The position numbers and the translations under genes are program-made. The notes beneath the pieces are model-generated. The model had not been told where the DNA came from and made no database searches. It saw only the letters and a program-made list of their open reading frames with translations. This document shows positions 2,378-57,754 of a stretch of 64,000 nucleotides of DNA, piece after piece. This stretch comes from an uncultured Hormoscilla sp. (lineage in GTDB: Bacteria; Cyanobacteriota; Cyanobacteriia; Cyanobacteriales; Desertifilaceae): NCBI GenBank assembly GCA_963921275.4, contig OZ001293.3, positions 3,552,001 through 3,616,000 on the forward strand, read 5' to 3'. The stretch's first letter is position 1. The number at the start of each line of letters is the position of its first letter.

Positions 2378-3645
2378 CCATTATAGAAGGGCGTTAGCTT
2401 CTCCACTCAATCTTTCCCAGATACATCCTGCCGAATATAAGCAGATGTTGCGCCTTTGGTGGCTGCTCGTGCGATTCGGTCGCTCATGACCCGCAACAGG
2501 TCATGAGCGACCGGTTACATCAACCGGGAACTTTGATGTTCATGGGGGTTAAATTCCTCCCGCCCAGATGCAGGGTTGACACCGGTCGGAGGTGCTGCGG
2601 AGCGATATCACCGTGGTGCTGAGCGAGGACTCAAATGTAGGATAGCTGGTAGCCTAAATCGGTGACTCCGCTAGGAAAGATATCCAAGGTTAGAACAAGC
2701 GAACGTATAAAAACCTCGTTAACCAAAACCAGCGGAATAAGGCTATATACGCTGGTCCCAAAAGGGGAAGCAGTCAGGGCTAGCTTTGGGCAGTGGCTAG
2801 TCATGTATCCGAAAGACTGTCGGGGAATATTACGGACCTAAAGATATCGTAAAATGACATCAAGGAACGAAGTAACCTCTCGTGTGCTGTCTGGTCTCGA
2901 CCGGCTAGACAAGTTAGATATTAAGCGCAAGCCACGGGAGGAGGGATGTCCCAAAAAGCAAATGCCCAGGGTAATGCCTGGGATAACGCCCGGAGCAATC
3001 CCGGTGATGTCCACAAGGACGCTGACGTGGGACGGATATACCAGGATGCTGTTCAGATTAGTAACTCCACATATATTATGAGCCCGATTTGGACCCCTCG
3101 GGGACTGATGGAGGTATGAGTGAAGGTGTAGGTGAAACAGGGTGACTGCCGTCGGACGGCGATATAAACTAGGCGAGAGACCACAGGTTCCTTGACAACC
3201 GCTCGCTGACCTGCACATAGAAGGAGCCAACAAGTAGACAGTAAGGGCCTACGGTGGGTAACCCCTATAAAGCCTATCCATGACAAGGACCTGGTAACCA
3301 GTAGCCGTGTGCGGTGAAAGTCGCAAGCACGGTTTCGCTCTTGGAGGGTTGGGGAGCGATTCCCAGCTCGACCCCGACCAACCTATCGACCGGTGGTTGA
3401 GAGTATGTATCTGGTTTACTTCGTTCCTCTAGATGATTGGTTGTAGTTTTAGGTGGACTCTGTATGCCGGGTTTGTTGTCAGTGCTTATTGGTCGGTAAA
3501 CGAACCGCCAATGACCGTTATCCTTTCCCGTTTTGGGCCAGCGTGTAAGCCTTTCCGCTGGTTGTTAGTGACGACACTTACAAGCCTTTGTTTTACTCAC
3601 CATGACTACTTACTCGACGGTAACCGGTTTAGGCGAGCCTAAACC
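1672..3645 (-). mobile_element. RT-encoding group II intron remnant (host of the nested intron)
   Basis: Reverse complement of 3380-3645 has domain I motifs (CCAGCGGAAAGGCTTACACGCTGG, CCTAAA...GGAACGAAGTAA) continuing across the insertion into 2378-2468 and the RT ORF. Confidence 0.8.
2469..3379 (+). mobile_element. ORF-less group II (IIB-like) intron A
   Basis: 5' GTGCG; DV TAGCCGTGTGCGGTGAAAGTCGCAAGCACGGTTT 3302-3335; DVI with bulged A; EBS1 GGGCAG 2788-2793 pairs IBS1 CTGCTC 2463-2468; EBS2 ACCAAA pairs TTTGGT; no RT ORF. Confidence 0.92.
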
Positions 3646-37364: not shown

Positions 37365-39281
37365 ATGACTATCTGTGTAAATCCGGAATGCCTTAGCCCC
37401 CAAAACTCCCAAACTAGCAGAATTTGTGCCAGTTGTGGATCGCCCCTATTGCTCAAGGAACGGTATCGGCCTATACAAAAGTGGCATGTAGGTGGGCGTG
37501 GCGGGATTATTTAACCTAAGTTGCGACCTATTAAAAAAAATATGAATTACCCACTTAGACTTTACAGATATTTGGGATATTTCGTAGCTTTTGATACAAA
37601 ATTATATTTTTTTTGTGCTAGACGGCGGGTTGGCTGTTTATAGGTTATAATGTACTAAAATAATAGTTAATTGCTGGGGGATGTAGATGATGGAAGATAT
37701 GATTACAACAATTTTTGTTCTTTGTGACGAGCTACTAAAAGCGTTAAATATAAAAGAAGATCCACAAGTAAAAATGAACAATGCCGAAGTGATGACAGTC
37801 GGATTAGTTGCTGCATATTTTTTCGGAGGACACCACGATCGCTCTTGTCAATTTATGGTCCAACACAAGTATATAAAAAATCTGTTAAGTAAAAGTAGGT
37901 TCAATCGTCGATTACACAATATTGAGGAACCAATTTGGATGTTTTTCTTCCAAGTTATAGCTCAAACATTTAAAGAGCTCAATCCGGGTCAAGAATATAT
38001 TCTTGATAGTTTCCCGGTGCCAGTATGTGATAATATTAGGATTGATAGATGCCAAATTTATAACAAGGAAGAATATCGAGGGTATATTGCCAGTAAAAAA
38101 CGTTATTTTTATGGATTAAGAGTTCATATGTTGGTAAACAAAAATGGAAAGCCAATAGAATTTTATCTAGATCCTGGTAGTTATAATGATTTTAAAGTTT
38201 TGCAATCTTTTGGCTTTGACTTACCATCAAATTCAATAGTTTATGGAGATAAAGCTTATAATGATTATCAATTAGAGGATTTACTAAAAGAGTCGTCAAG
38301 TATAATGTTAAAACCTTTGCGAAAAAAGAACTCAAAAAGAAAAGAATCTTCTTGTTTTGAATATATACAAAAAGTAACAAGAAAACAAGTTGAAACCTGT
38401 TTTAGTCGAATCACCAATTTGTTTCCCAAGTCAATTCATGCTGTTACATCTAAGGGATTAGAGTTGAAAATAATTCTCTTTATAATAGCTTTTTGTATCC
38501 AATTTTTATAGGTCGCAACTTGAGTTATTTACTGCCAGAAAACCAAGTCAGCGATGCCCTGGGTCGCATCCTGGATAAGTTATTACAAGATTCCCTCACA
38601 AAGCGCTATTAAACTGCTTCAGAAGTTTTAGAAGTGCTGAGGCCACCACAAGCAATAGGGAAACCTGCCCCAAAAGCAATCCGCAAAGTCTCCCAGAGAC
38701 CGCCTCAACCGGTGTCCCCTAATCACCTGCTAACGACAGTTACCTATGTCAAAAACTTGCTGAAACCTCTAGAAAATGAGGTTTTACCTTCCTCGTCCGG
38801 GCTTGATTACAGTAGGTTAGCTTCATTACTGGCATGGAAGCGATGGCAAGCTGCCGATCTGGAAACCTGGACAATGCTGTCTCAGGCGTCAGGTAAGGGA
38901 CTGAGGGGCTATCTCTTGGCCGGAGATATTCAGAAGATCCCCTGCGATGATTTGCAGGCGATCTACCAGTTGTGGGTGAAGTCCAGCGGCGGGCGCTTTG
39001 GCTTCACCGTGCAAGCACGGATTTATGGAGAGGTGGGTGAGGACTACGTGAGTTTTTGCGATCGGGTGGGATGGCCGGTCCACCAACCTCATAACTCTAA
39101 CAGGGGGCTGCGATTTAACTTGCGCACGCCCGCAGGACATCTGCCCTCACGAGTTTGGGTGGGGGGCGTGAAACAGTGGAATCATGTCCAGGCGATGGTA
39201 GCCAAATTGACAAAATGTGGGATTGTCCTAATCCCGATGGGTAAATCTCCCCATTTTCAATATTTTCATTCTAGAAATTAA
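37365..39281 (+). pseudogene. Ser/Thr kinase-GUN4 domain gene, kinase core deleted and IS-interrupted
   Basis: 4-Cys prefix CVNPEC...CASCG..LLLKERY; kinase tail ILDKLL..KRY*; GUN4 DYSRL..WQAADLET..SGGRFGFTVQ..GHLP. Confidence 0.8.
37514..38525 (+). mobile_element. IS982-family element copy 2 (transposase 37687-38511)
   Basis: Near identical to copy 1; TSD TATTTA. Confidence 0.9.
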
Positions 39282-43595: not shown

Positions 43596-44720
43596 ATGCC
43601 AGCATCAGCTAAAACTAGCACCATGCAACATTACCTAGATTATATTTCCATCAAGGGCTTCCGGAGTATCTGGGAGATCCAGAAGCTAAAACTACGCCCC
43701 ATCAATATATTGATCGGGGCTAACGGGTCGGGAAAATCTAACTTTGTGGAAGTATTTTCCTTCTTAAATGCTATTCGTTGTGGTAAGTTAAGAAATTATA
43801 CAGCCCAAAGAGGTGGAGCAGATACAATCTTGCACTTTGGCTCGAAAGTTACACCAGAAATAGAAATAGAAATTTCGTTTAACTCGCAGGTTAACGGGTA
43901 TCAAATATTGTTAGGATCAACAGATATCGATGAACTTTATATCAAAGATGAACGCTGTTGGTTTTGGCGTAAACAATACCCAGGACAATACTACTATTGG
44001 ATCTTAAATGCGGTGAACGGTGAAGCTGGCATTAGTCAACCTGGTCCAAGGATTACCAGTTGGGTGCAGTCACGTCTCGATCGTTTGCGAATTTATCACT
44101 TTCACGATACGAGCAAACAGTCACCCATGAAACGACTTGCAGATGTTAATGATAATTATTTTTTGCGTTCGGATGGCTCAAATCTTCCTGCTTATTTACT
44201 TCTCTTAAGAGAACAAAATCCGTCTAGTTATCGTTTGATACGCAATACAGTGCGAAGGGTAGCACCTTTTTTATATGACTTTCAATTAGCTCCCTTGCGT
44301 CGCAATCAAAATAAAATTCGCCTAGAATGGATGCACAAACTCTCAGACCAATACTTTGATGTTTCGTCTCTATCTGATGGGACATTACGCTTCATTTGTC
44401 TGGCGACCTTATTACTGCAACCTACCCAAAAACGCCCTTCTCCTATCATTTTAGATGAACCCGAACTGGGTTTACATCCTTATGCGATTACGATGTTGGC
44501 AAGCATGGTAAAAGCTGCTGCTACAAAAACTCAGATTATTATTTCTACACAATCACCCCTGCTTCTCGATCATTTTGAACCAGAAGATATTTTGGTCACA
44601 GAATTAGAAGATGGGGCCACAACTCTCACTCGTTTGCAATCTAGTGAGTTAGAAGCATGGCTGGAAGACTATAGCTTGGGACAACTTTGGGAAAAAAATC
44701 AATTTGGTGGCAGACCTTAA
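43596..44720 (+). CDS. ABC-class AAA ATPase
   Basis: IKGFRSI, GANGSGKSN, YHFHDTS, LSDGTLRF, LDEPELGLHP, STQSP. Confidence 0.9.
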   Translation: MPASAKTSTMQHYLDYISIKGFRSIWEIQKLKLRPINILIGANGSGKSNFVEVFSFLNAIRCGKLRNYTAQRGGADTILHFGSKVTPEIEIEISFNSQVNGYQILLGSTDIDELYIKDERCWFWRKQYPGQYYYWILNAVNGEAGISQPGPRITSWVQSRLDRLRIYHFHDTSKQSPMKRLADVNDNYFLRSDGSNLPAYLLLLREQNPSSYRLIRNTVRRVAPFLYDFQLAPLRRNQNKIRLEWMHKLSDQYFDVSSLSDGTLRFICLATLLLQPTQKRPSPIILDEPELGLHPYAITMLASMVKAAATKTQIIISTQSPLLLDHFEPEDILVTELEDGATTLTRLQSSELEAWLEDYSLGQLWEKNQFGGRP

Positions 44721-44721
44721 C

Positions 44722-45420
44722 ATGGTTAGATTGTTGGTACTCGTAGAAGGAGAAACAGAAGAAACTTTTGTTAATGAAGTTTTGGCTTCGCATCTTTATA
44801 AGAAAGGATTTCATACAGTTAGCGCTAAGTTGATGGGTAATGCCCGCAAGCGCGATCGAAGGGGTGGAATTAAAAGGTGGCCCGGAGTGTGTAAAGAAAT
44901 TATCTAACATCTTAATAGAGATAGATCCATATATGTGTCAACAATGGTAGATTACTATGCTTTACCAGGAGGAAAAAATAATCCAAATGCATGGCCAGGG
45001 CGATTCCAAGCGAGTTGTTTAGAGTTTGACAATAAGGCTCAACATATTGAAGCAGAACTACAGCAAGATATTGCCGCTAAAATGAATACAAAACGATTTA
45101 TTCCATATATCATTATGCATGAGTTTGAGGGGTTACTGTTTAGTAACTGCAAGCAGTTTGCTAGGAGTATCGTTCGGGAGGACTTAGCCACTAAGTTTCA
45201 AAACATTCGCGATCGATACTCCTCTCCAGAAGAGATTAATGATTCTCCCGAAACTCATTTATCTCAAAGAATTAAAACCTTGATGCCAGAGTACCAAAAG
45301 TTTCTACATGGTAACTTGGCAGCGATTGATATTGGACTTGAGACTTTTCGCACAGAATGTCCAGGATTTTGGCGTTGGTTAGAGAAAATAGAATCCTTAT
45401 CTAAAGACGATATAATTTGA
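44722..45420 (+). pseudogene. DUF4276-like TOPRIM protein with internal stop
   Basis: VLVEGETEE, STMVDYYALP, HEFEGLLFS, PEEINDSPET; in-frame TAA at 44905-44907. Confidence 0.8.
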
Positions 45421-46483: not shown

Positions 46484-48355
46484 GTGACTTATGACAGTAA
46501 ACAAATAAAAGTTGTAGCAGCCATTGATTTTGGGACGTCGCGTTCGGGCTACGCCTATGCATTCAAAGATGACAAGCACATAATCGGACGCTATGAGTAG
46601 GACAAACAACCATTTCAATACATCAAAACCCTTACACAAAGCCTCTATAACAGCGATCGCCGGCTAGAAGGGTGGGGGTATGCTGCTCTATACCGGCTAG
46701 CAGAACTGCGTAAAGCTAAAAATGCTAAAGACCATAGCTTTTTCTCAACTTTTAAGATGGCACTGCGGGAAAGCAGTAAGCGCACTAATGATGGTCCCAT
46801 TGCCGTGGCCAACAACGGACAAGAGTTTCCAGTCATCGATCTAGTTGCTGATTACCTACGGGAACTAGGTGGGCTGCTGCGTACAGAACTGAAAAATGCC
46901 ACTAGCGGAAAACTAAAAGATAACAAAATTCTTTGGTGCTTAACAATTCCAGCGATCTGGAAAGACAACGAAAAGTCTTTCATGCGTAGTGCGGCTGTCA
47001 AAGCGGGACTGATTACCGATAGCGAAAGCGATCGCGAACGATTGTTGCTGGTCCTGGAGCCGGAAGCTGCTGCAATTTACTGCCAAGAAAAAGACCAAGC
47101 CCAACTTGAGGCAGGTAAACGCTTTATGGTTGTAGACTGCGGTGGAGGCACAGTTGATATTACCACCCATGAGGTTTCGCCCCATGGTGGGTTGGATGAA
47201 GTAGCCGAAGGGACTGGTGGAGCTTATGGTTCTACATATGTGGACAAAGAGTTTCGCGAATACCTTGCCAGGAAGCTGACAGCTCCAGCTTTGACACGCT
47301 ATGAAGAAGAAGACCCTATTGGTTGGTTGGAACTGATGGGAGACTGGGAACGGAAAAAGTGTGACTTCGATCCGGCAACAACTACGATAAGCTACTTGGA
47401 GATACCCAACCGCCTCTACAAAATTTTGTCAAAGGACTATCCGCAGGTTTTGGAAAAACTTGCGGAGGAACAGGATGAGGATGATAAAAAAGTTCACCTT
47501 AGCCAAGAAACCATGCAGGCAGTGTTTAAACCTGTATTGGATGGTTTGGTGAAAAAAGTTAAAGAACAATTTGCAAGTGTAGATCATCACCGCTTCTACA
47601 AAATTTTGTTAAAGGACTATCCGCAGGTTTTGGAAAAACTTGCGCTTGCGGAGGATGATGAAAAAATTCACCTTAGCCAAGAAACCATGCAGGCAATAGT
47701 TAAAAAATTTAAAGAAGATCGTCGCGGGTGCGATATTATGTATCTCGTCGGTGGATTTTCTACATCGCCTGTTTTACGTCAACGCATTCAGCAAGAATTT
47801 GGCGATCGCATCAAGATTGTGATGCCAAAACAACCCGGTGCAGCAATAGTGGAAGGGGCAGCCTCGTTTGGTCTAAATCCAGAAAGCATCCGCTCCCGCT
47901 GTTCTCGCCTTATTTATGGTTGCCAGGTTTGTCAAGTGTTTGATGAAAATCGCGATCGCCATCAGAAAAGCAAGCGTCAATATTTTGAAGAAAAAGGTGA
48001 CTGGTATATTTGCAATCGTTTTAGTCACTTTGTGCTAGCAGGTGACAGTGTTGATGTCAACGAAGTAGTCACGCACCCATTTTATCCTATGACGTCGGAT
48101 CAGAAGGCAATAGGTTTTACATTTTATGCAACGCGGAAAAAGAATCCACGCTATGTAGATGAGCCAGATGTAGAAGAGTTGGGAAAGTTAGAAGTTGATA
48201 TATCTTCAACAGTTGGTAAACAGAGAGATGAACAGCAGGTCGAAGTTTCCATGAACTTTGGCAGAACCGAAATAGCCGTTACTGCCAGAGATATGAAAAC
48301 AGGACAAACGTACAATACAAATCTGCGTTTTTCTTCCACATACTCAATCGAATAA
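46484..48355 (+). pseudogene. Atypical Hsp70 (HSPA12-like) with one premature stop
   Basis: GTG start after GGGGAG; AAIDFGTSRSGYAY; in-frame TAG 46598-46600; WCLTIPAIW, LEPEAAAIYC, VVDCGGGTVD, LVGGFS. Confidence 0.85.
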
Positions 48356-48367
48356 GGGAGCGTATAC

Positions 48368-50218
48368 ATGATGGAATCACAAAAAACACCTAACCCAGGG
48401 GAAACCCCAGAAGTAGAGCGAGACACCTCAGCAGATGCAGAAGCACAGAAAAAGCTACGGGGTGACGCAGGAACTACAGACTCATCTACAACATCTGAAC
48501 GAGCAGAAGGGAGCGAAATTTCTTCTCTTAGCTCAGAGGAAGATAATGATCCAGCAAGAGTAAAGGATCCTGTAGATCCTGCTGACAAAAAAATAGCACC
48601 GCCGCCAAGTAAAAAAAGAATTGGAATTATAGGTAGAATTATAGGTAGAATTAAAGGTATGTTCGGGATGTCTCAAGCAAACGAAAAAATCTACAACAAC
48701 CTTATAGAGGTTTATGACTGGCTAGCTAAAATACACAAGGGAAAACCCAATGTAGATTTTAAAGACAAGCAAATGGATTTTAGTTGTGTGTATATAAAGG
48801 CAGCACTGGATCTAATTGATCGATTGTCAAATGATAAAGAAGAACTCCGCGCTCAATTAGCAGAACTAGAACAAGATAATCGTGAATTGCAGTCAGAGTG
48901 CAAGTTACTAAAACAACAGAATAGAAATCTGGTAGCAGAAAGGGATGGGCTTCGCCGCACAAAACAAAGCTTTGAGGAAGAAAATAAAGAACTTCAGGCT
49001 CAATACAGACAAAAGGCTCAGGAAGTTGAAACAGTCAAAGGACAGAAGGAATCTTTGGAAGGAGAGCTTAAAGAACAAGAAGCAAGCAAGAGTAAACTGT
49101 TAGCAGAAGTGGCACGCCTGAAACGAAATACAGGTACGCATTATGACGGAACGAGCGAGCGACCACAGCACCATGTTTTGACAGGGGAATATAAAACCCT
49201 CAAAGAGCAGCATCTGGATCCTTTGGCCACCAGCTTGTTTACATTCATGGCAATGCTCGATCCAGAACTAAAGAAACAGCGCAAACAAAAAGTAAATGAC
49301 ATCAAAGCTGCTATCTCTGCTACTGTTCTGATAAAGGGTCAGGCAATTATGCGAGGAGAAAGCACTGGGTCAGTAGATATACCCTCAGAAATGCTAGAGG
49401 AAATGCAAAGCTTGTTGTGTCAGAAGCTACAATTAAATAATCAAGAGTTTCCGCCCGAAGCTATAGAATTCCTGAAAAAAGCAGTAAACCGCGCGCAGGG
49501 TAAAGTCGAGTATCCTGAACCTGGTAAATGGCAAGAAAAAGACTTCAATAAAGCCTCCGCAGAACTGAGGCCTCTCCTTTACCAAAAGCTAAAACTTGAC
49601 TTGGCAAACCTGAGTCCCGACTTACAGACCGAAACACAAAAAGCGATTCAAAATGCTTTGCACTTTCTGGAACGAGCTGCTTGTGCAGATCCAGCAGCAG
49701 ACCTAACATTCGACAAGGAAGGTGCTCCTTTCCGCATCGACTATCACGAAGCTGCAAAAGGTTGGAATGATGAAGGGACAGTCATAAAAACAATCTATCC
49801 TGTCTATCTGGTAAACGGAAAAGCAAAAGTTAAAGCAGTTGTATTAACTGAACCGTCATCTGAGGCTTCGCATCCAAGCACTATTAACAACACACCATCT
49901 TCAACAGAATCGGAATCTAGTCACCTTGCAACTACAACAAAATGGACAGAGGGCAAGGAGGATGAAGAAAGGATCCGTTTGGAGGCAAAACGAGAATCTT
50001 TAATAAAGGGCGTGAAGGCTAAATGGTTTGATTCTCAAGACTCAACATACAAAGAGTCAGAAGCTCGGCTGCTAGAGAAGTTATCTAAAATAGAACGGCG
50101 TGACGTTATTGAGGAACTGGTGGAAAGAGAAATTCATAAATCAGACAATCCGAATCAGTTCGAGGAAAAACTAGATGAGCTGCTAGCGGATTCTTCTAGT
50201 CAACAGAATAATGAGTAA
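48368..50218 (+). CDS. Coiled-coil protein with possible GrpE-like C-terminal region
   Basis: Heptad-rich segment; GAPFRIDYHEA...GTVIKTIYPVYLVNGKAKVKAVV. Confidence 0.7.
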   Translation: MMESQKTPNPGETPEVERDTSADAEAQKKLRGDAGTTDSSTTSERAEGSEISSLSSEEDNDPARVKDPVDPADKKIAPPPSKKRIGIIGRIIGRIKGMFGMSQANEKIYNNLIEVYDWLAKIHKGKPNVDFKDKQMDFSCVYIKAALDLIDRLSNDKEELRAQLAELEQDNRELQSECKLLKQQNRNLVAERDGLRRTKQSFEEENKELQAQYRQKAQEVETVKGQKESLEGELKEQEASKSKLLAEVARLKRNTGTHYDGTSERPQHHVLTGEYKTLKEQHLDPLATSLFTFMAMLDPELKKQRKQKVNDIKAAISATVLIKGQAIMRGESTGSVDIPSEMLEEMQSLLCQKLQLNNQEFPPEAIEFLKKAVNRAQGKVEYPEPGKWQEKDFNKASAELRPLLYQKLKLDLANLSPDLQTETQKAIQNALHFLERAACADPAADLTFDKEGAPFRIDYHEAAKGWNDEGTVIKTIYPVYLVNGKAKVKAVVLTEPSSEASHPSTINNTPSSTESESSHLATTTKWTEGKEDEERIRLEAKRESLIKGVKAKWFDSQDSTYKESEARLLEKLSKIERRDVIEELVEREIHKSDNPNQFEEKLDELLADSSSQQNNE

Positions 50219-50230
50219 CAGGAGGTTGTT

Positions 50231-50617
50231 ATGAGTCGGGGAAAAGAGAGATATGTGAGTGTTGAGGAACGGGAATTACGCAGATTACGCGAACAGGAAA
50301 GCCGACTGCGTTCTGTTCAACAAGATTTGCCCGATCGCCTCAATCGCGTTCGTGAGGAAGCACGGCTCCAGATGCAGCAACGCCTCGCCCCTCTAGAGAA
50401 ACGGGCAAGACAACAGGAAAAAGAGACCCAACGCCTGCGGAGTAATATTGGCGATCTCGAACGCAGTACCCAACAGCGATTGCAACAACAGCGCCAAGAA
50501 TTTCAGAAATCGGTGCGGGAATCGGAGGATCGACAACGGCAGGCACTTGCCCGTGAAAGCACTCGCCTAGAGTCAGCCATGCGGGCAGGGTTCCAGCACG
50601 AAGATGCGTTAAGCTAA
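50231..50617 (+). pseudogene. Coiled-coil protein truncated at a direct repeat
   Basis: RBS GGAGG; R/E/Q-rich; ends inside repeat starting at 50603. Confidence 0.6.
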
Positions 50618-50791: not shown

Positions 50792-51662
50792 GGGCGTGTC
50801 ATCAGTTAAGCCAGACGACAGAAGCAGCCAGATAAATCGCCCCTAAAAAGTTACGGGCTGTTTTATCATAACGGGTAGCAATAGCGCGATACTGCTTGAG
50901 TTTGGCAAAAAAGTTTTCAATTAGATGGCGAGCCTTGTAGAGGTGCTTGTCATAAGGATAAGGAACTTGGCGATTCACCTTGGAGGGAATGACCGCTGTG
51001 CAACTTTGAGCTTGGAGTTTTTGACGGACCCGCTCATCAGCATCATAAGCTTTATCTGCCAGGATTGCCTCAGCTTCAAGGTTTTCAAGGAGGACATCTG
51101 CGCCATCTTGATCGTGGGCTTGTCCTCCCGTCAAAAAGAAGCCTGTGGGATTCCCCAGAGCGTCACAAGTGGCATGAATCTTTGTACTTAATCCTCCTCG
51201 ACTTCTACCAATGGCTTGAGCGTTACTCTCTCCACTCATTGTCCTCTCTGTCCTCCCCGGAATCTTTTTTTGCGCCCCAGCACTGTGTTGATGCGCTCGC
51301 ACGATTGTCGAATCAATCATCCCATACTCGTTATCTGCGTCTTGCGCCAACAGCTTGAATATCCTTTCCCACACTCCACTTTTATTCCATCGGCTAAATC
51401 TTGTATGTACTACTCGAAAATCTCCAAACCTTTCAGGTAGGTCTCTCCACGGGATTCCCGCTCTATATCGATACAACACTGCTTCAACAAACAGTCGATT
51501 ATTTTTGGCCGTTCCTCCTACATGGCCGTCTCTCCCAGGTAGCAAATCCTTGATTTTTTCCCACTGGTCATCTCTAAGTGCATATCTACGCATTTTTCTC
51601 TGTGTTTCTCTCTCTTCGGTTTATCTATTCTATCCTTTCTTTCTCTAACTGATGACACGCCC
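50792..51662 (-). mobile_element. IS5-family (IS427-like) element with intact 263-aa transposase (50802-51593)
   Basis: TIRs GGGCGTGTCATCAGTTA/TAACTGATGACACGCCC; TA duplication. Confidence 0.92.
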
Positions 51663-54056: not shown

Positions 54057-56030
54057 ATGCCAAAAGCCCCAAACATACCACCGGAACCTGAGATTACACA
54101 CGAACAAAGAGAAGCAGCAGAAGCCGAAATCAGGGAAAAGCAAAAAACAGTTGACTATGACACAAAAGAATATCCAGTGGAAGTGCTTGTCCTGAAATAC
54201 CGAGATGGGTTGGATGAAGATACCAATGAGTTGTATATACCCGACTATCAACGAGATATGAATTGGGACGAAAGTCGGCAGTCAAAGTTTATTGAATCTG
54301 TGCGATTCGTTCTAGCCTAACGTGGTCAAACACGGAACGCTAGCCCGGTTTCATTAGCCGGGAACTCTGACCGCATGGGGGTTAAATTCCCCTCCCCCCA
54401 GGTACGGGGGTGACACCGGTCCTCGGTGCTACGAAGCGACATCATCGTGGTGCTAAGCGAGGACTCAAATGTAGGATAACTGGCAGCCTAAGCCGGTGAC
54501 GCCGCTAGGAAAGATATCCAAGGTTAGAGCAGGCAAACATGTGCAAGCCTCGTTATAAGGAACCAGCGAAATAAGGCTATATGCGCTGGCCTAAAAAGGA
54601 AATGGTAGCTAGTATTAGTTTTAGACTCTGGCTAATATAGTACTCAAATAGCTCCCGGGGTATAGTGTGGACCTAAAGGTATCGCGAAATGTTGTTAGGG
54701 AACGAAGTAACCTCTCGTGTGCTGTCCATCAGGACAAGTTAGATGTTAAGCGCAAGCCACGGGGGGAGGGATGGCCCAAGAAGCGAATGCCCGGGGTAAT
54801 TCCTGGGATAACATCTACAGTAATGTAGATGATGCTGGGTAGCCAGCGCTGACGTGGGTCGGTGATACTAGGAAGCTGCTGGAATGAGTAATCCTAAAAA
54901 GCCACGGAACTAATCCGAAACGCAAGTGGAGGATAAGGTATGGATAACTGGTAAAACTGACTTGAAAATGGTGATACTAACGGTTATCAGAACAACCACT
55001 CGCTAAACCAGGAAAGGGAAGAAAAGACAGGCGGCAAGGGCTAACGGAAGTAATTCCTATTAAGTCTACCTATGAAAAGGGCCTAGTACCCAGTAGCCGG
55101 ATGCGGTGAAAATCGCAAGTCCGGTTCCTCAAGGGAGGGTCGGGAAGCGATTCCCGGCTCGACCCCATCCATTTTTCTAGGATTACCTACCCAGATTTTT
55201 GTAGCTGATTTGCGACGAAAGCCAGAAGATGATGAGGAAGATTTAGGTCGGTTAGAAATTGTTGATGGCACCCAACGTATCCGTACATTAAACAGATTTC
55301 TCAATAACGAACTACAGTTGTGTGGACTAGAAAAGCTAAAGAAGCTTAACAACTTCAAATTCAGGGATTTGCCCCTGACAAGACAAAGACGCTTTAACAG
55401 GGCCACGATTCGCATAATTGTGCTGACGAAGAAAGCTGATGAAGAAACACGACGGGATATGTTGAACGCCTCAATACAGGTAGCGTCGAACTAAATGACA
55501 TGGAGAAGCGTCGAGGTAGATCTCCGGGGCCGTTTGTCGATCTGCTTGAAGAACTCGCCAAAACTCCCAAATTTATTAAACTATGTCCTAGATCGGAGGC
55601 ACTTGTTCGCAAAGGGGAACCTGAAGAATTTGTGTTACGTTTTTTTGCCTACTTAAATAACTATCAGAATTTTGACGGGCACGTCAATAAGTTTCTCAAT
55701 GAATATCTAGAAGAACATAACCATGCTGGAATCGACCGAGATGTTATGGGCTCTGAATTTCACAAAATGTTAGACTTTGTTGACAAATACTTTCCCAATG
55801 GATTTAGTAAAACCAAAGGTCATGTCAGAACACCAAGAATACGCTTCGAGGCAATTTCTGTAGGTGTTGCACTCGCTTTGAGAGAAAAGAGCGATCTCGA
55901 ACCAAAATCAATGGCCTGGCTTGACTCACGAGAATTCAAGGAATATACTACCTCAGATGCAAGCAACTCCAGATATAAAGTAATTCGGCGTATTGAATAT
56001 GTTCGCGATGAACTTCTCGGTAAATCATGA
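54057..56030 (+). pseudogene. DUF262 (GmrSD N-terminal/ParB-like) protein interrupted by a group II intron, plus one frameshift
   Basis: IPDYQR, QSKFIES|IFLGLP, IVDGTQR; F-ERLNTG motif broken by a 1-nt deletion near 55463. Confidence 0.85.
54300..55170 (+). mobile_element. ORF-less group II intron B
   Basis: 5' GTGCG; DV TAGCCGGATGCGGTGAAAATCGCAAGTCCGGTTC 55094-55127; DVI; EBS1 AGACTC 54623-54628 vs IBS1 GAATCT; homologous to intron A. Confidence 0.93.
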
Positions 56031-56725
56031 CTAGCACGTTATTTCAGGACTTCAACGAACGCTCTAAGGAAGTGAGCAAATATTTTATGTTCTTGAAGAG
56101 TTTGGAGCAGGGGACTACTAAATTAAGTATGGAAGGTAAAGGGGGAATTACAAAAATTAAAGAAATTGATTCTGAGTTAATTAAGACATTAAAATCCAGC
56201 GGTTTTCTGTTGCTCTATAACCTAGTGGAAGCAACAATGCGAAACGCGATCGAAGCAATATTTAGCGAACTGCAAAGTCAAGGAGTTGACTACGACCAAA
56301 TTAGACCTGAACTCAAAAAAGTTATCCTCAAAAACCTCAAGAAGCGAAACTCCGAAAAAATATTTTCAAGTATAACAGCTATTGCGGTAGATATTATTAC
56401 TGCTGGATTTGAGAAAGAAGATCTTTTTTCTGGAAACGTTGATGCTAGAAAAATAAGAGAGACGGCAACTGAATATGGATTTTCACATCTGACTGATTAG
56501 GCCAAAACAGGTCATGGATTGGATTTATTGATAATCAAGTCAAATAGGAATGATTTAGCACATGGCTATAAATCTTTTGCCGAGGTAGGAAAAGAAAAAA
56601 ACGCAGATGAGTTATTAGAGATTAAGAAGAAGACAGTCAGCTATTTAAGGGAAATACTGCAAAATATTGAACAATATTTATCAAATCAAGAATACTTAGA
56701 TTCATCGACTACAGGGACTCCTTAA
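56027..56725 (+). pseudogene. MAE_28990/MAE_18760-like HEPN nuclease with in-frame stop
   Basis: FLLLYNLVEAT, FSGNVDARKI, RNDLAHG (Rx4H); TAG at 56498-56500, frame continues. Confidence 0.8.
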
Positions 56726-57754
56726 ATCAATATGATTTAGGATACTATGAGCAATTACTTGACCGAGTTTGACAGGCACGGCATTCCCAATTAATCGCTC
56801 TACTAGAGAGAACAGCACGGGTTCATCAGGGGCGACCAACTGGTATGTTGGTGGAAAAGTTTGTAATAAGGCTGCTTCTCTCAGAGAGATAGCCCTATCT
56901 TGTTCGGGATGACCAAACCGACCATTGCCAAAACCAAAACACTGGGTAGTAATAGTTGGGCTAGGTTTATCCCATTCCATTCTACCATACACTGCTGGAT
57001 AGGTTTTACCGCTCTTTTTTATGTGGCATTTGGCCATTAAGTCTTGAGGCCAATCTCGCCAAGTTACTCCTGGTTTGGAAGCCCGAATACGGCGCAGATT
57101 TAGAGCCGAAAGCTTGCTACTTCTATGGAGACGATCTATTGGAGAAGCTTGCCCCGCACAAAGGGGTTCGAGATTTTCAATAGTTTGTCTGACTGTTTGG
57201 TAAGTATCTGGGTTATGTGTTGGTGCAATTAGGTTGATTTTACCAAATCTTGAAGCAAATAAGACTAATCGCTTTCGAGATTGAGGAATTCCATAATCTA
57301 GACAGTTCACCTCATAAAACTCAAAGCAATAGTTTAACTTTTTCAGCTGGGCGATAAACTCCTGAAAAACTGAATGAAGTTTTAACTGAAGTACATTTTC
57401 CATTGAAATAATATCAGGTTCGCATTCTTCAATCAGACGAGCAAAATCTTGCAAAAGCTTCCACTTCGACTGCCGATCGTTATAACGTCTTGAATAACTG
57501 GAAAATGGCTGACAAGGGGCGCATCCTGCTAATACTTTAATACTGCTTCCAGAAAAATGTTCTGCTAAATCAAGACCGCTGACATTTTGCACATCTTGCA
57601 ATAGGAATTTGGCTTTATTGTTATGTTCGTATGGAAACTTACACGCGGGATCGATATCATATCCAGCTTTGACTGGAAGACCTGCTTGCTCAAACCCATA
57701 GGTTAGTCCTCCAGCACCACAAAACAGATCTACTGTGGAGATGCTTATAGCCAT
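56702..57754 (-). CDS. dcm: DNA (cytosine-5)-methyltransferase
   Basis: DLFCGAGG, GCAPCQPFS, MENV, PQSRKR, REAALLQTFP, IGNAVP. Confidence 0.92.
   Translation of the reverse strand: MAISISTVDLFCGAGGLTYGFEQAGLPVKAGYDIDPACKFPYEHNNKAKFLLQDVQNVSGLDLAEHFSGSSIKVLAGCAPCQPFSSYSRRYNDRQSKWKLLQDFARLIEECEPDIISMENVLQLKLHSVFQEFIAQLKKLNYCFEFYEVNCLDYGIPQSRKRLVLFASRFGKINLIAPTHNPDTYQTVRQTIENLEPLCAGQASPIDRLHRSSKLSALNLRRIRASKPGVTWRDWPQDLMAKCHIKKSGKTYPAVYGRMEWDKPSPTITTQCFGFGNGRFGHPEQDRAISLREAALLQTFPPTYQLVAPDEPVLFSLVERLIGNAVPVKLGQVIAHSILNHIDLRSPCSR

Follow-up and report, generated by a model that had tools for sequence, protein, structure and literature searches.

A short ORF-less group II intron, one of 139 near-identical chromosomal copies, interrupts a broken DUF262-HEPN operon in a Hormoscilla symbiont

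Two cyanobacterial systems come closest to the introns described here. In Thermosynechococcus elongatus, the IIB1 introns TeI3 and TeI4 are ORF-less and RT-coding, respectively, and TeI3 is mobilised by TeI4 proteins (Mohr et al. 2010, PMC2882425). In Trichodesmium erythraeum, dnaN is among the genes that contain ORF-less introns (PMC4649490, PMC12584367). Concerning intron structure, the consensus 3' end of group II introns is AY (PMC4028801, PMC4424553), and RmInt1 from Sinorhizobium meliloti ends in CC, has a G-C gamma-gamma' pair and splices (PMC4238363). In terms of numbers, no genome in a set of 1,790 representative bacterial ones exceeded the 101 introns of Arthrospira platensis (Miura et al. 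2022, PMC8919778). On the host side, an arrangement of ParB/DUF262, MAE_28990 HEPN and DNA methylase genes has been described (Anantharaman et al. 2013, PMC3710099), as has the PD-T4-2 system (PMC10952713).

The DNA analysed here (the window) is a 64,000-nt stretch from an uncultured Hormoscilla sp. (OZ001293.3 of GCA_963921275.4, positions 3,552,001-3,616,000, forward strand). Hormoscilla are sponge symbionts. Coordinates refer to the window unless the chromosome of this genome (G000), a contig of 6.88 Mb designated C1, is named. The window harbours an ORF-less group IIB intron within a DUF262 gene, with the following features.

54057-54299, + strand: exon 1 of the DUF262 (GmrSD_N, ParB-like) gene, 81 codons
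54287-54292 and 54294-54299, + strand: IBS2 GTTTAT and IBS1 GAATCT, at the 3' end of exon 1
54300-55170, + strand: ORF-less group IIB intron, 871 nt, GTGCG...ACCCCATCC
54555-54560, + strand: EBS2 ATAAGG; target consensus CCTTAn at -13 to -8, co-variation with targets across families
54623-54628, + strand: EBS1 AGACTC in the Id3 loop; target consensus GAGTCT at -6 to -1
54663, + strand: EBS3 U, partner of IBS3 A at 55171
54769-54771, + strand: J2/3 GGA; its gamma G pairs with C55170, the final intron base
55048-55079, + strand: the intron's own homing site in the non-coding domain IV, cut at 55067/55068
55094-55127, + strand: domain V, AGC triad at 55095-55097, AA bulge
55133-55170, + strand: domain VI, bulged A55162 nine bases before the end; non-AY 3' terminus ATCC
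55171-56030, + strand: exon 2 of the DUF262 gene; pseudogene with a codon deletion and a 1-nt frameshift
56027-56725, + strand: MAE_28990-family HEPN gene, TAG at 56498-56500
56702-57754, - strand: C5 cytosine methyltransferase gene, convergent, open frame

A first-pass annotation had proposed an 871-nt ORF-less intron at 54300-55170, with domains V and VI near its 3' end, whose removal restores the DUF262 frame. These proposals were borne out. The element begins with GTGCG, in agreement with the 5' GUGYG consensus and as in 138 of the 139 copies of its family, and its longest stop-free frame is 58 codons. The Rfam covariance model Intron_gpII (RF00029) gave 44.4 bits at 55092-55168 (cut-off 40). 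Exons 1 and 2 match consecutive GmrSD_N/DUF262 segments (Pfam profile positions 6-34 and 49-152), and the sequence across the 54299/55171 junction aligned without gaps to six intron-free homologues with 60-88% identity; in this alignment L012 was dropped because the wrong ORF had been picked, and four minus-strand loci were listed but not aligned. The domain V triad, the bulged A of domain VI, the gamma-gamma' pair and the EBS1, EBS2 and EBS3 pairings of group IIB were all found. EBS1 AGACTC, invariant in 139/139 copies, pairs with GAATCT at five of six positions as proposed, and the target consensus of the 139 copies supports this pairing. The same consensus confirms the proposed EBS2-IBS2 pairing and extends it to ATAAGG/GTTTAT, also five of six.

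Several other assignments were considered and rejected. A contig of run X24, from a relative with ~91% identity, joins 54299 to 55171 exactly. Taking into account that 119 of ~1,370 letters differ and that the intron interior is not covered in this run, this joint is the relative's empty allele and not a spliced transcript, and we do not regard it as proof of splicing. Moving the boundaries so that the unit gains CT at its 5' side and ends in AT would also restore the residues E-S-I; this was rejected because positions -2/-1 vary among copies and nested empty sites give GTGCG...ATCC as the inserted unit. The motif AAGGTT at ~54521 was rejected as EBS2, as it is invariant with respect to the targets, whereas ATAAGG co-varies with them. 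An MFE fold of the whole intron (z=-2.9) did not reproduce the six-domain fold and was left unused. An upstream promoter scan gave chance-level results.

The intron's 3' terminus does not follow the AY consensus. The window copy terminates in ...CCCCATCC / ...GACCCCATCC at 55170, and 138 of 139 family copies end in ACCCCATCC (ATCC). When the unit is excised at this ATCC end, 36 of 113 copies are left with at least 60 open codons to either side, compared with 7-9 when the end is shifted by 1-2 nt. The same frame test gave 15/47 for the GACC families (1-3 when shifted) and 19/79 for the GACT families (5-7 when shifted). Cutting the window intron after AT leads to a stop three codons later. Of 298 introns parsed (8 more were unparsed), 296 have a gamma base that is Watson-Crick complementary to the final nucleotide (189 G-C, 107 A-U), and some 290 parsed copies from several families end in CC or CU. 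As RmInt1 ends in CC and splices, we consider the CC end a rare variant with precedent which does not exclude these introns from group II. RmInt1 shares the CC end and the G-C gamma-gamma' pair with the 871-nt family, but it encodes its own RT and is described in its report as a lone exception; here there are ~290 CC/CU copies, with the predicted branch A (A55162 in the window) nine nucleotides from the end. TeI3 and TeI4, as far as their report describes them, differ in their ends. CC/CU ends may already have been recorded for some chloroplast-like classes. Boundary rules based on AY displace the 3' ends of these introns by 1-2 nt, and intact genes then look frameshifted.

The window intron is one member of a swarm. 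C1 carries 139 full-length copies of the 871-nt family with 98.6-100% identity, together with 22 partial matches; 123 copies measure exactly 871 nt, and 61 of these match the window copy in every letter, its sequence being the commonest of the family. The depth of the intron core in X2 contigs was ~9400 versus 110 on the flanks, so that the copies are no assembly artefact. An iterated domain V profile gave 497 hits, all on C1. To delimit complete introns, nested copies were stripped and 5' motifs matched to DV/DVI ends. This yielded 367 complete group II introns (389 kb, 5.7% of C1), and left 79 3' ends and 127 5' motifs unpaired. Among the 367, 316 are no longer than 1,200 nt and 25 carry an ORF of 500 or more codons. 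As reported, T. elongatus has 28 introns, 17 of them ORF-less, and Trichodesmium has 17, including 10 without an ORF, so that the number here is about tenfold above both sets. Arthrospira, another filamentous cyanobacterium in which chloroplast-like introns have expanded, has its reported 101 against 367 complete introns and 497 domain V hits on C1, although the counting methods differ.

The distribution of these introns was then surveyed in other genomes. Counts with a single DVI pattern were 269 in this genome and 68, 54, 9 and 0 in the related assemblies G004, G003, G002 and G001, the assemblies being mostly fragmented. A DNA search matched 14 of 41 genomes, with only short DV-like pieces outside the genus. 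A collection scan gave at least 39 loci, and the matches listed comprised 37 entries titled Hormoscilla sp., one Prochloron and one archaeal chance match. The intron had no match in a plasmid collection. The Prochloron-titled locus (L127) has a DV/DVI 84% like that of the 871-nt intron, a ACCCCGACC end and no RT upstream; the RT-less lineage may reach another symbiotic cyanobacterium. Another ORF-less member of this lineage lies in the window itself, at 2468-3379 (+), and also ends in ACCCCGACC (EBS1 GGGCAG/IBS1 CTGCTC; EBS2 AACCAA/IBS2 TTGGTG). It is inserted in antisense upstream of a truncated RT ORF (~1690-2340, -) in a decayed RT-coding intron. A separate 31-kb contig, G000:C3, has 17.6% G+C as against 42-49% in the other contigs, and is possibly foreign.

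We examined how the copies choose their sites. The flanks of the 871-nt copies are random except for aaCCTTAn-n-GAGTCT|A, the complement of EBS2 (54555-54560), EBS1 (54623-54628) and EBS3 (U54663). EBS1 forms five or six of six pairs at 101 of 115 distinct target sites. Among 287 introns, EBS2 forms a mean of 4.13 pairs with its own site and 3.10 with shuffled sites (maximum 3.28). With G-U counted as a pair, EBS3 and the exon's first base are matched in 249 of 269 parsed introns. Where copies have inserted into domain IV of other copies, empty and filled sites differ by exactly 871 nt without duplication. Insertion is precise, occurs without target duplication, and has its target set by EBS1, EBS2 and EBS3 pairing. 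In a target matrix built from the used sites themselves, whose scores are consequently descriptive only, the window site has 13.1 bits, at about the 75th percentile among used sites, and ~31 of 133 sites that are as good are occupied. With ORFs called by a simple purpose-written script, the 143 parsed copies comprised 41 in sense and 30 in antisense within ORFs, 28 within other introns and 44 elsewhere; for the 41:30 sense bias, p is 0.16 under one null and 0.012 under another. Insertion into other introns and mobile elements is also reported for TeI3/TeI4. The first-pass annotation had singled out the exactly in-frame position of the window intron. Any precise retrohoming event yields the same, and as the sites are scattered and EBS-chosen, in-frame rejoining is a general rule of precise insertion and not a property of this gene.

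Concerning the proteins that might mobilise these introns, the suggestion that a maturase is probably supplied in trans gained support. Elsewhere on C1 there are 18 RT frames that are free of stops, span 555-609 codons and encode YADD; an intact RT lies, for example, at C1:4777759-4779585. The best solved relative of the resident RT is the maturase RT of PDB 6ME0 (E 2.8e-108). The presence of RT-coding introns in the same genome as an intron without an RT ORF in domain IV corresponds to the TeI3 situation. On the other hand, descent of the 871-nt intron from a resident RT-coding intron by ORF deletion was not found. Complete RT-coding introns with long ORFs all end in TAGTTTAAY, the 871-nt intron is only 49-53% identical to nine RT-coding introns over DI-DIII, and its domain IV contains no ORF remnant (best blastx E 0.42). 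According to its report TeI3 derives from a TeI4 ancestor by ORF deletion with remnants left, in contrast to the ~50% identity without remnant seen here. The short-intron lineage thus looks RT-less from its sequences, and as such would depend on non-cognate helpers or on self-splicing.

Likely helpers are themselves hit by the family. Among 24 RT introns with a frame of 550 or more codons after stripping of insertions, 13 are interrupted, 11 of them by the 871-nt family in antisense. Splicing cannot remove antisense copies, and the 871-nt family is disabling its own likely helpers. The reported TeI3/TeI4 insertions do not share this mostly antisense orientation in helper ORFs. Interrupted RT-coding introns lie, for example, at C1 1056960, 1148036, 3651011 and 6630465, many of them hit at the same site.

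We considered whether recombination or gene conversion, or carriage by other elements, could have spread the copies with no borrowed RT, splicing having been lost. No cognate RT-coding intron was found in G000, and no RT lies upstream of DV among the matches listed (at least 39 public loci, many ending at contig ends). Several copies within repeated elements share flanks, and splicing has no way to remove the 30 copies lying antisense within ORFs. Against this, the 115 distinct target sites have EBS-matched flanks, DV is conserved, and gamma-gamma' and EBS3 co-vary. Moreover, head-to-tail and nested copies of the family are present on C1, and the head-to-tail arrangement is one reported for EBS3=U retrohoming (PMC12584367). 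One tandem array of two copies lies at G000:C1:824934-826675 and one of three at 5447656-5450268. Spread without a borrowed RT is in our judgement improbable, and the host genes of the sister families, described next, speak against it as well.

Insertions in single-copy genes bear on whether the introns splice. Host genes were scanned for the 31 longest sense hosts of the 871-nt family and for 32 of 38 hosts of other families. The 871-nt family lies in sense in the single-copy ribD, in queG and in an ectoine hydroxylase gene. In ribD (C1 36636-38640, junction at 37709) the intron is at codon 357 of 377; without splicing the last 20 residues, LGNDFLLTGYL included, would be lost, and ribD is intact in 5/5 relatives. 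Sister families interrupt the middle of the single-copy genes eno, zwf, prfC and nrdJ, with a sense bias of 55:22 (p=2e-4). Besides ribD, housekeeping genes with sense ORF-less introns, most of them single-copy, are as follows.

C1 848310-852697: nrdJ, junction at ~848.6 kb
C1 1799446-1801634: eno, junction at ~1,800 kb
C1 6446254-6448716: zwf
C1 2134219-2136713: prfC
C1 5579212-5584762: gltB

A search for class I or III ribonucleotide reductases found none in this genome (96.7% complete), nrdJ being the only reductase found. Taking into account the gamma-gamma' pair in 296/298 introns and the insertions in single-copy ribD, nrdJ and eno, it is likely that the short introns splice in vivo. As a possible alternative, the symbiont might import the products of the intron-bearing genes. 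There are also hints against efficient splicing of the 871-nt family, as its sense insertions in ribD, bicA, queG and a rhomboid gene fall in the last 7% of the gene (excess in the last 15%, p=0.07) and its sense bias of 41:30 is weak. Trichodesmium is reported to splice ORF-less introns of protein genes in vivo with a maturase shared in trans; for the present introns splicing is what we infer.

The order of DUF262, MAE_28990 HEPN and convergent C5 methylase genes is the same as in the described ParB/DUF262-HEPN-methylase module (PMC3710099), but here both DUF262 and HEPN are broken. Near 55461-55463 a single base is missing from DUF262, so that the product is frameshifted at codon ~179 even if splicing is perfect, and no slippery sequence was found at the frameshift. 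The first-pass annotation had left decay and sequencing error as alternatives. The latter was rejected, as the same letters occur in short-read contigs of X2 (110x) and X4, and decay stood. The X2 contig has no difference over 55149-56800, the HEPN TAG at 56498 included; X2 is possibly the source sample of the assembly, and thus tests sequencing error rather than independent biology. Intact frames after intron removal are therefore found for neither DUF262 nor HEPN. On the other hand, G002 and G004 harbour intron-free frames for DUF262 (368 aa), HEPN (232 aa) and the methylase (346 aa), and the neighbours of the G002 operon (thf1-like, STAS, hemF-like) match those of the window. All 11 related loci have intron-free open frames of 360-368 aa, and the intron position is accordingly not conserved. 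The intact G002 DUF262 protein matched PADLOC NsnA (1e-60) and, with a lower score, PD-T4-2_A (7e-35), and the HEPN protein had no match to a PD-T4-2 model. Based on these DUF262 matches, a defence role of the module is plausible. The window methylase differs from that of G002 at its C-terminus, being four residues longer, and X24 has four extra bases at 56724. Relatives also carry second DUF262 copies, broken or diverged (L056 at G002:C6 3153-3700, L057, and L091 on G001:C194), either close to the intact operon or away from it; in G001, the copy has the motif deletion of the window gene described below.

The 871-nt intron is found in 2 of the 7 DUF262 genes on C1. The second (C1:4318739-4320431; L042, L090) carries it at the homologous IES|I codon, is truncated, and adjoins an IS-interrupted AAA ATPase gene. 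This coincidence is accounted for by the (K/R)(F/L)IES codons, which happen to resemble the intron target, and a targeting of defence genes, a post hoc notion, was rejected. The window holds another decayed defence locus, a HEC-01-like candidate pair at 43596-45420 (+). It consists of an AAA_21 ATPase (PADLOC HEC-01A, E 4e-138) and DUF4276/HEC-01B, the latter split into ORFs 44704-44907 and 44935-45420. At 46757-50617 (+), an Hsp70-like gene (532 aa) is followed by a 616-aa coiled-coil gene and by a truncated coiled-coil ORF, which an IS5-like transposase (50802-51593) cuts.

The first-pass annotation had also proposed a splice-gated defence gene, in which the host would switch on DUF262-HEPN by maturase-dependent splicing. 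The sense orientation, the good EBS-IBS pairing, the exact restoration of the frame and the presence of the intron at the same codon of two DUF262 genes would agree with this, and in Trichodesmium ORF-less introns are reported to coordinate dnaN with the RT of the RIR intron (PMC12584367). However, the frameshift near codon 179 is real and without a slippery sequence, HEPN has its stop, the second DUF262 gene is itself truncated beside a broken ATPase gene, relatives keep intact operons without an intron at this position, and the window site is an ordinary top-quartile target. We consider such a switch very improbable. The intron is a copy from a swarm and the host pair is also broken by a frameshift and a stop, so that a stray insertion is the likely reading.

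The order of events was examined with the related alleles. The window DUF262 is one codon short in its LPIPYIF motif, a deletion absent in all homologues with a readable motif (117/120), and it deviates at 8 of the 198 columns that are conserved, a higher number than in 117 of the 120 homologues. The intron-free G001 allele has the same deletion and a broken HEPN gene. In the X24 allele the frame is intact at 55461 and the deletion is apparently also present, which suggests that the deletion is possibly a tolerated variant. The pN/pS ratio of DUF262 was 0.37-0.51 on the window branch against 0.22-0.29 on sister branches (small counts), and its pairwise ratio was 0.30 versus G002, with 0.28 for G001 versus G002. 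HEPN displayed no excess (0.17-0.24 against 0.37). The hemF pair and the G057 HEPN outgroup, which were misaligned, were omitted from this comparison.

On these data, decay of the host gene probably preceded the insertion, although gene conversion could have kept the intron copies identical. The opposite order, in which a poorly spliced intron silenced a working module and the frameshift and stop followed, is possible and clearly less probable. It would fit the intact frame of the X24 allele at 55461, the lack of a replacement excess in HEPN, whose stop may then be recent, and the insertions in the last 7% of ribD, bicA, queG and the rhomboid gene, which hint at weak splicing. In opposition to this order, the intron is identical to the family master sequence while the host genes have accumulated several lesions, and decay also befell the G001 allele, which is of the same type and intron-free.

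Taken together, recent helper-dependent retrohoming of the 871-nt intron into a decaying DUF262-HEPN operon is very probably what occurred. Transcribed copies would be spliced with the help of a chromosomal RT/maturase, or would self-splice. The excised intron RNA would reverse-splice into DNA resembling aaCCTTAn-n-GAGTCT|A, and the borrowed RT would then copy the inserted RNA into DNA. The frameshift and the stop break the operon independently of the intron. The mode is a known one, that of TeI3/TeI4 and Trichodesmium: as in the former, ORF-less cyanobacterial introns multiply by EBS retargeting with help in trans, which for the present family we infer. The differences are the failure of a TeI3-like descent, the non-AY end and the larger number. 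In addition, the reported Trichodesmium introns reside in functional hosts, whereas here a pseudogene was hit in a recent burst of 139 copies. In the literature outside subscription papers, we found no report of such an intron load in Hormoscilla or of splice-gated defence genes.

The locus is thus an ordinary insertion in a dead defence-like operon, and does not provide an example of splicing-controlled immunity. A broader interpretation, which we regard as evenly balanced between right and wrong, is an organelle-like intron invasion. More than 300 RT-less introns with CC/CU ends would rely on shared non-cognate maturases, single-copy genes would have become dependent on their splicing, and the antisense disruption of helpers by the most aggressive family would act as a brake on its burst. 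If true, this would represent a state that has been postulated between self-contained retroelements and introns that share one splicing machinery. It is directly testable, as the chromosome offers natural targets by the hundred in which EBS/IBS, EBS3 and gamma-gamma' pairings co-vary.
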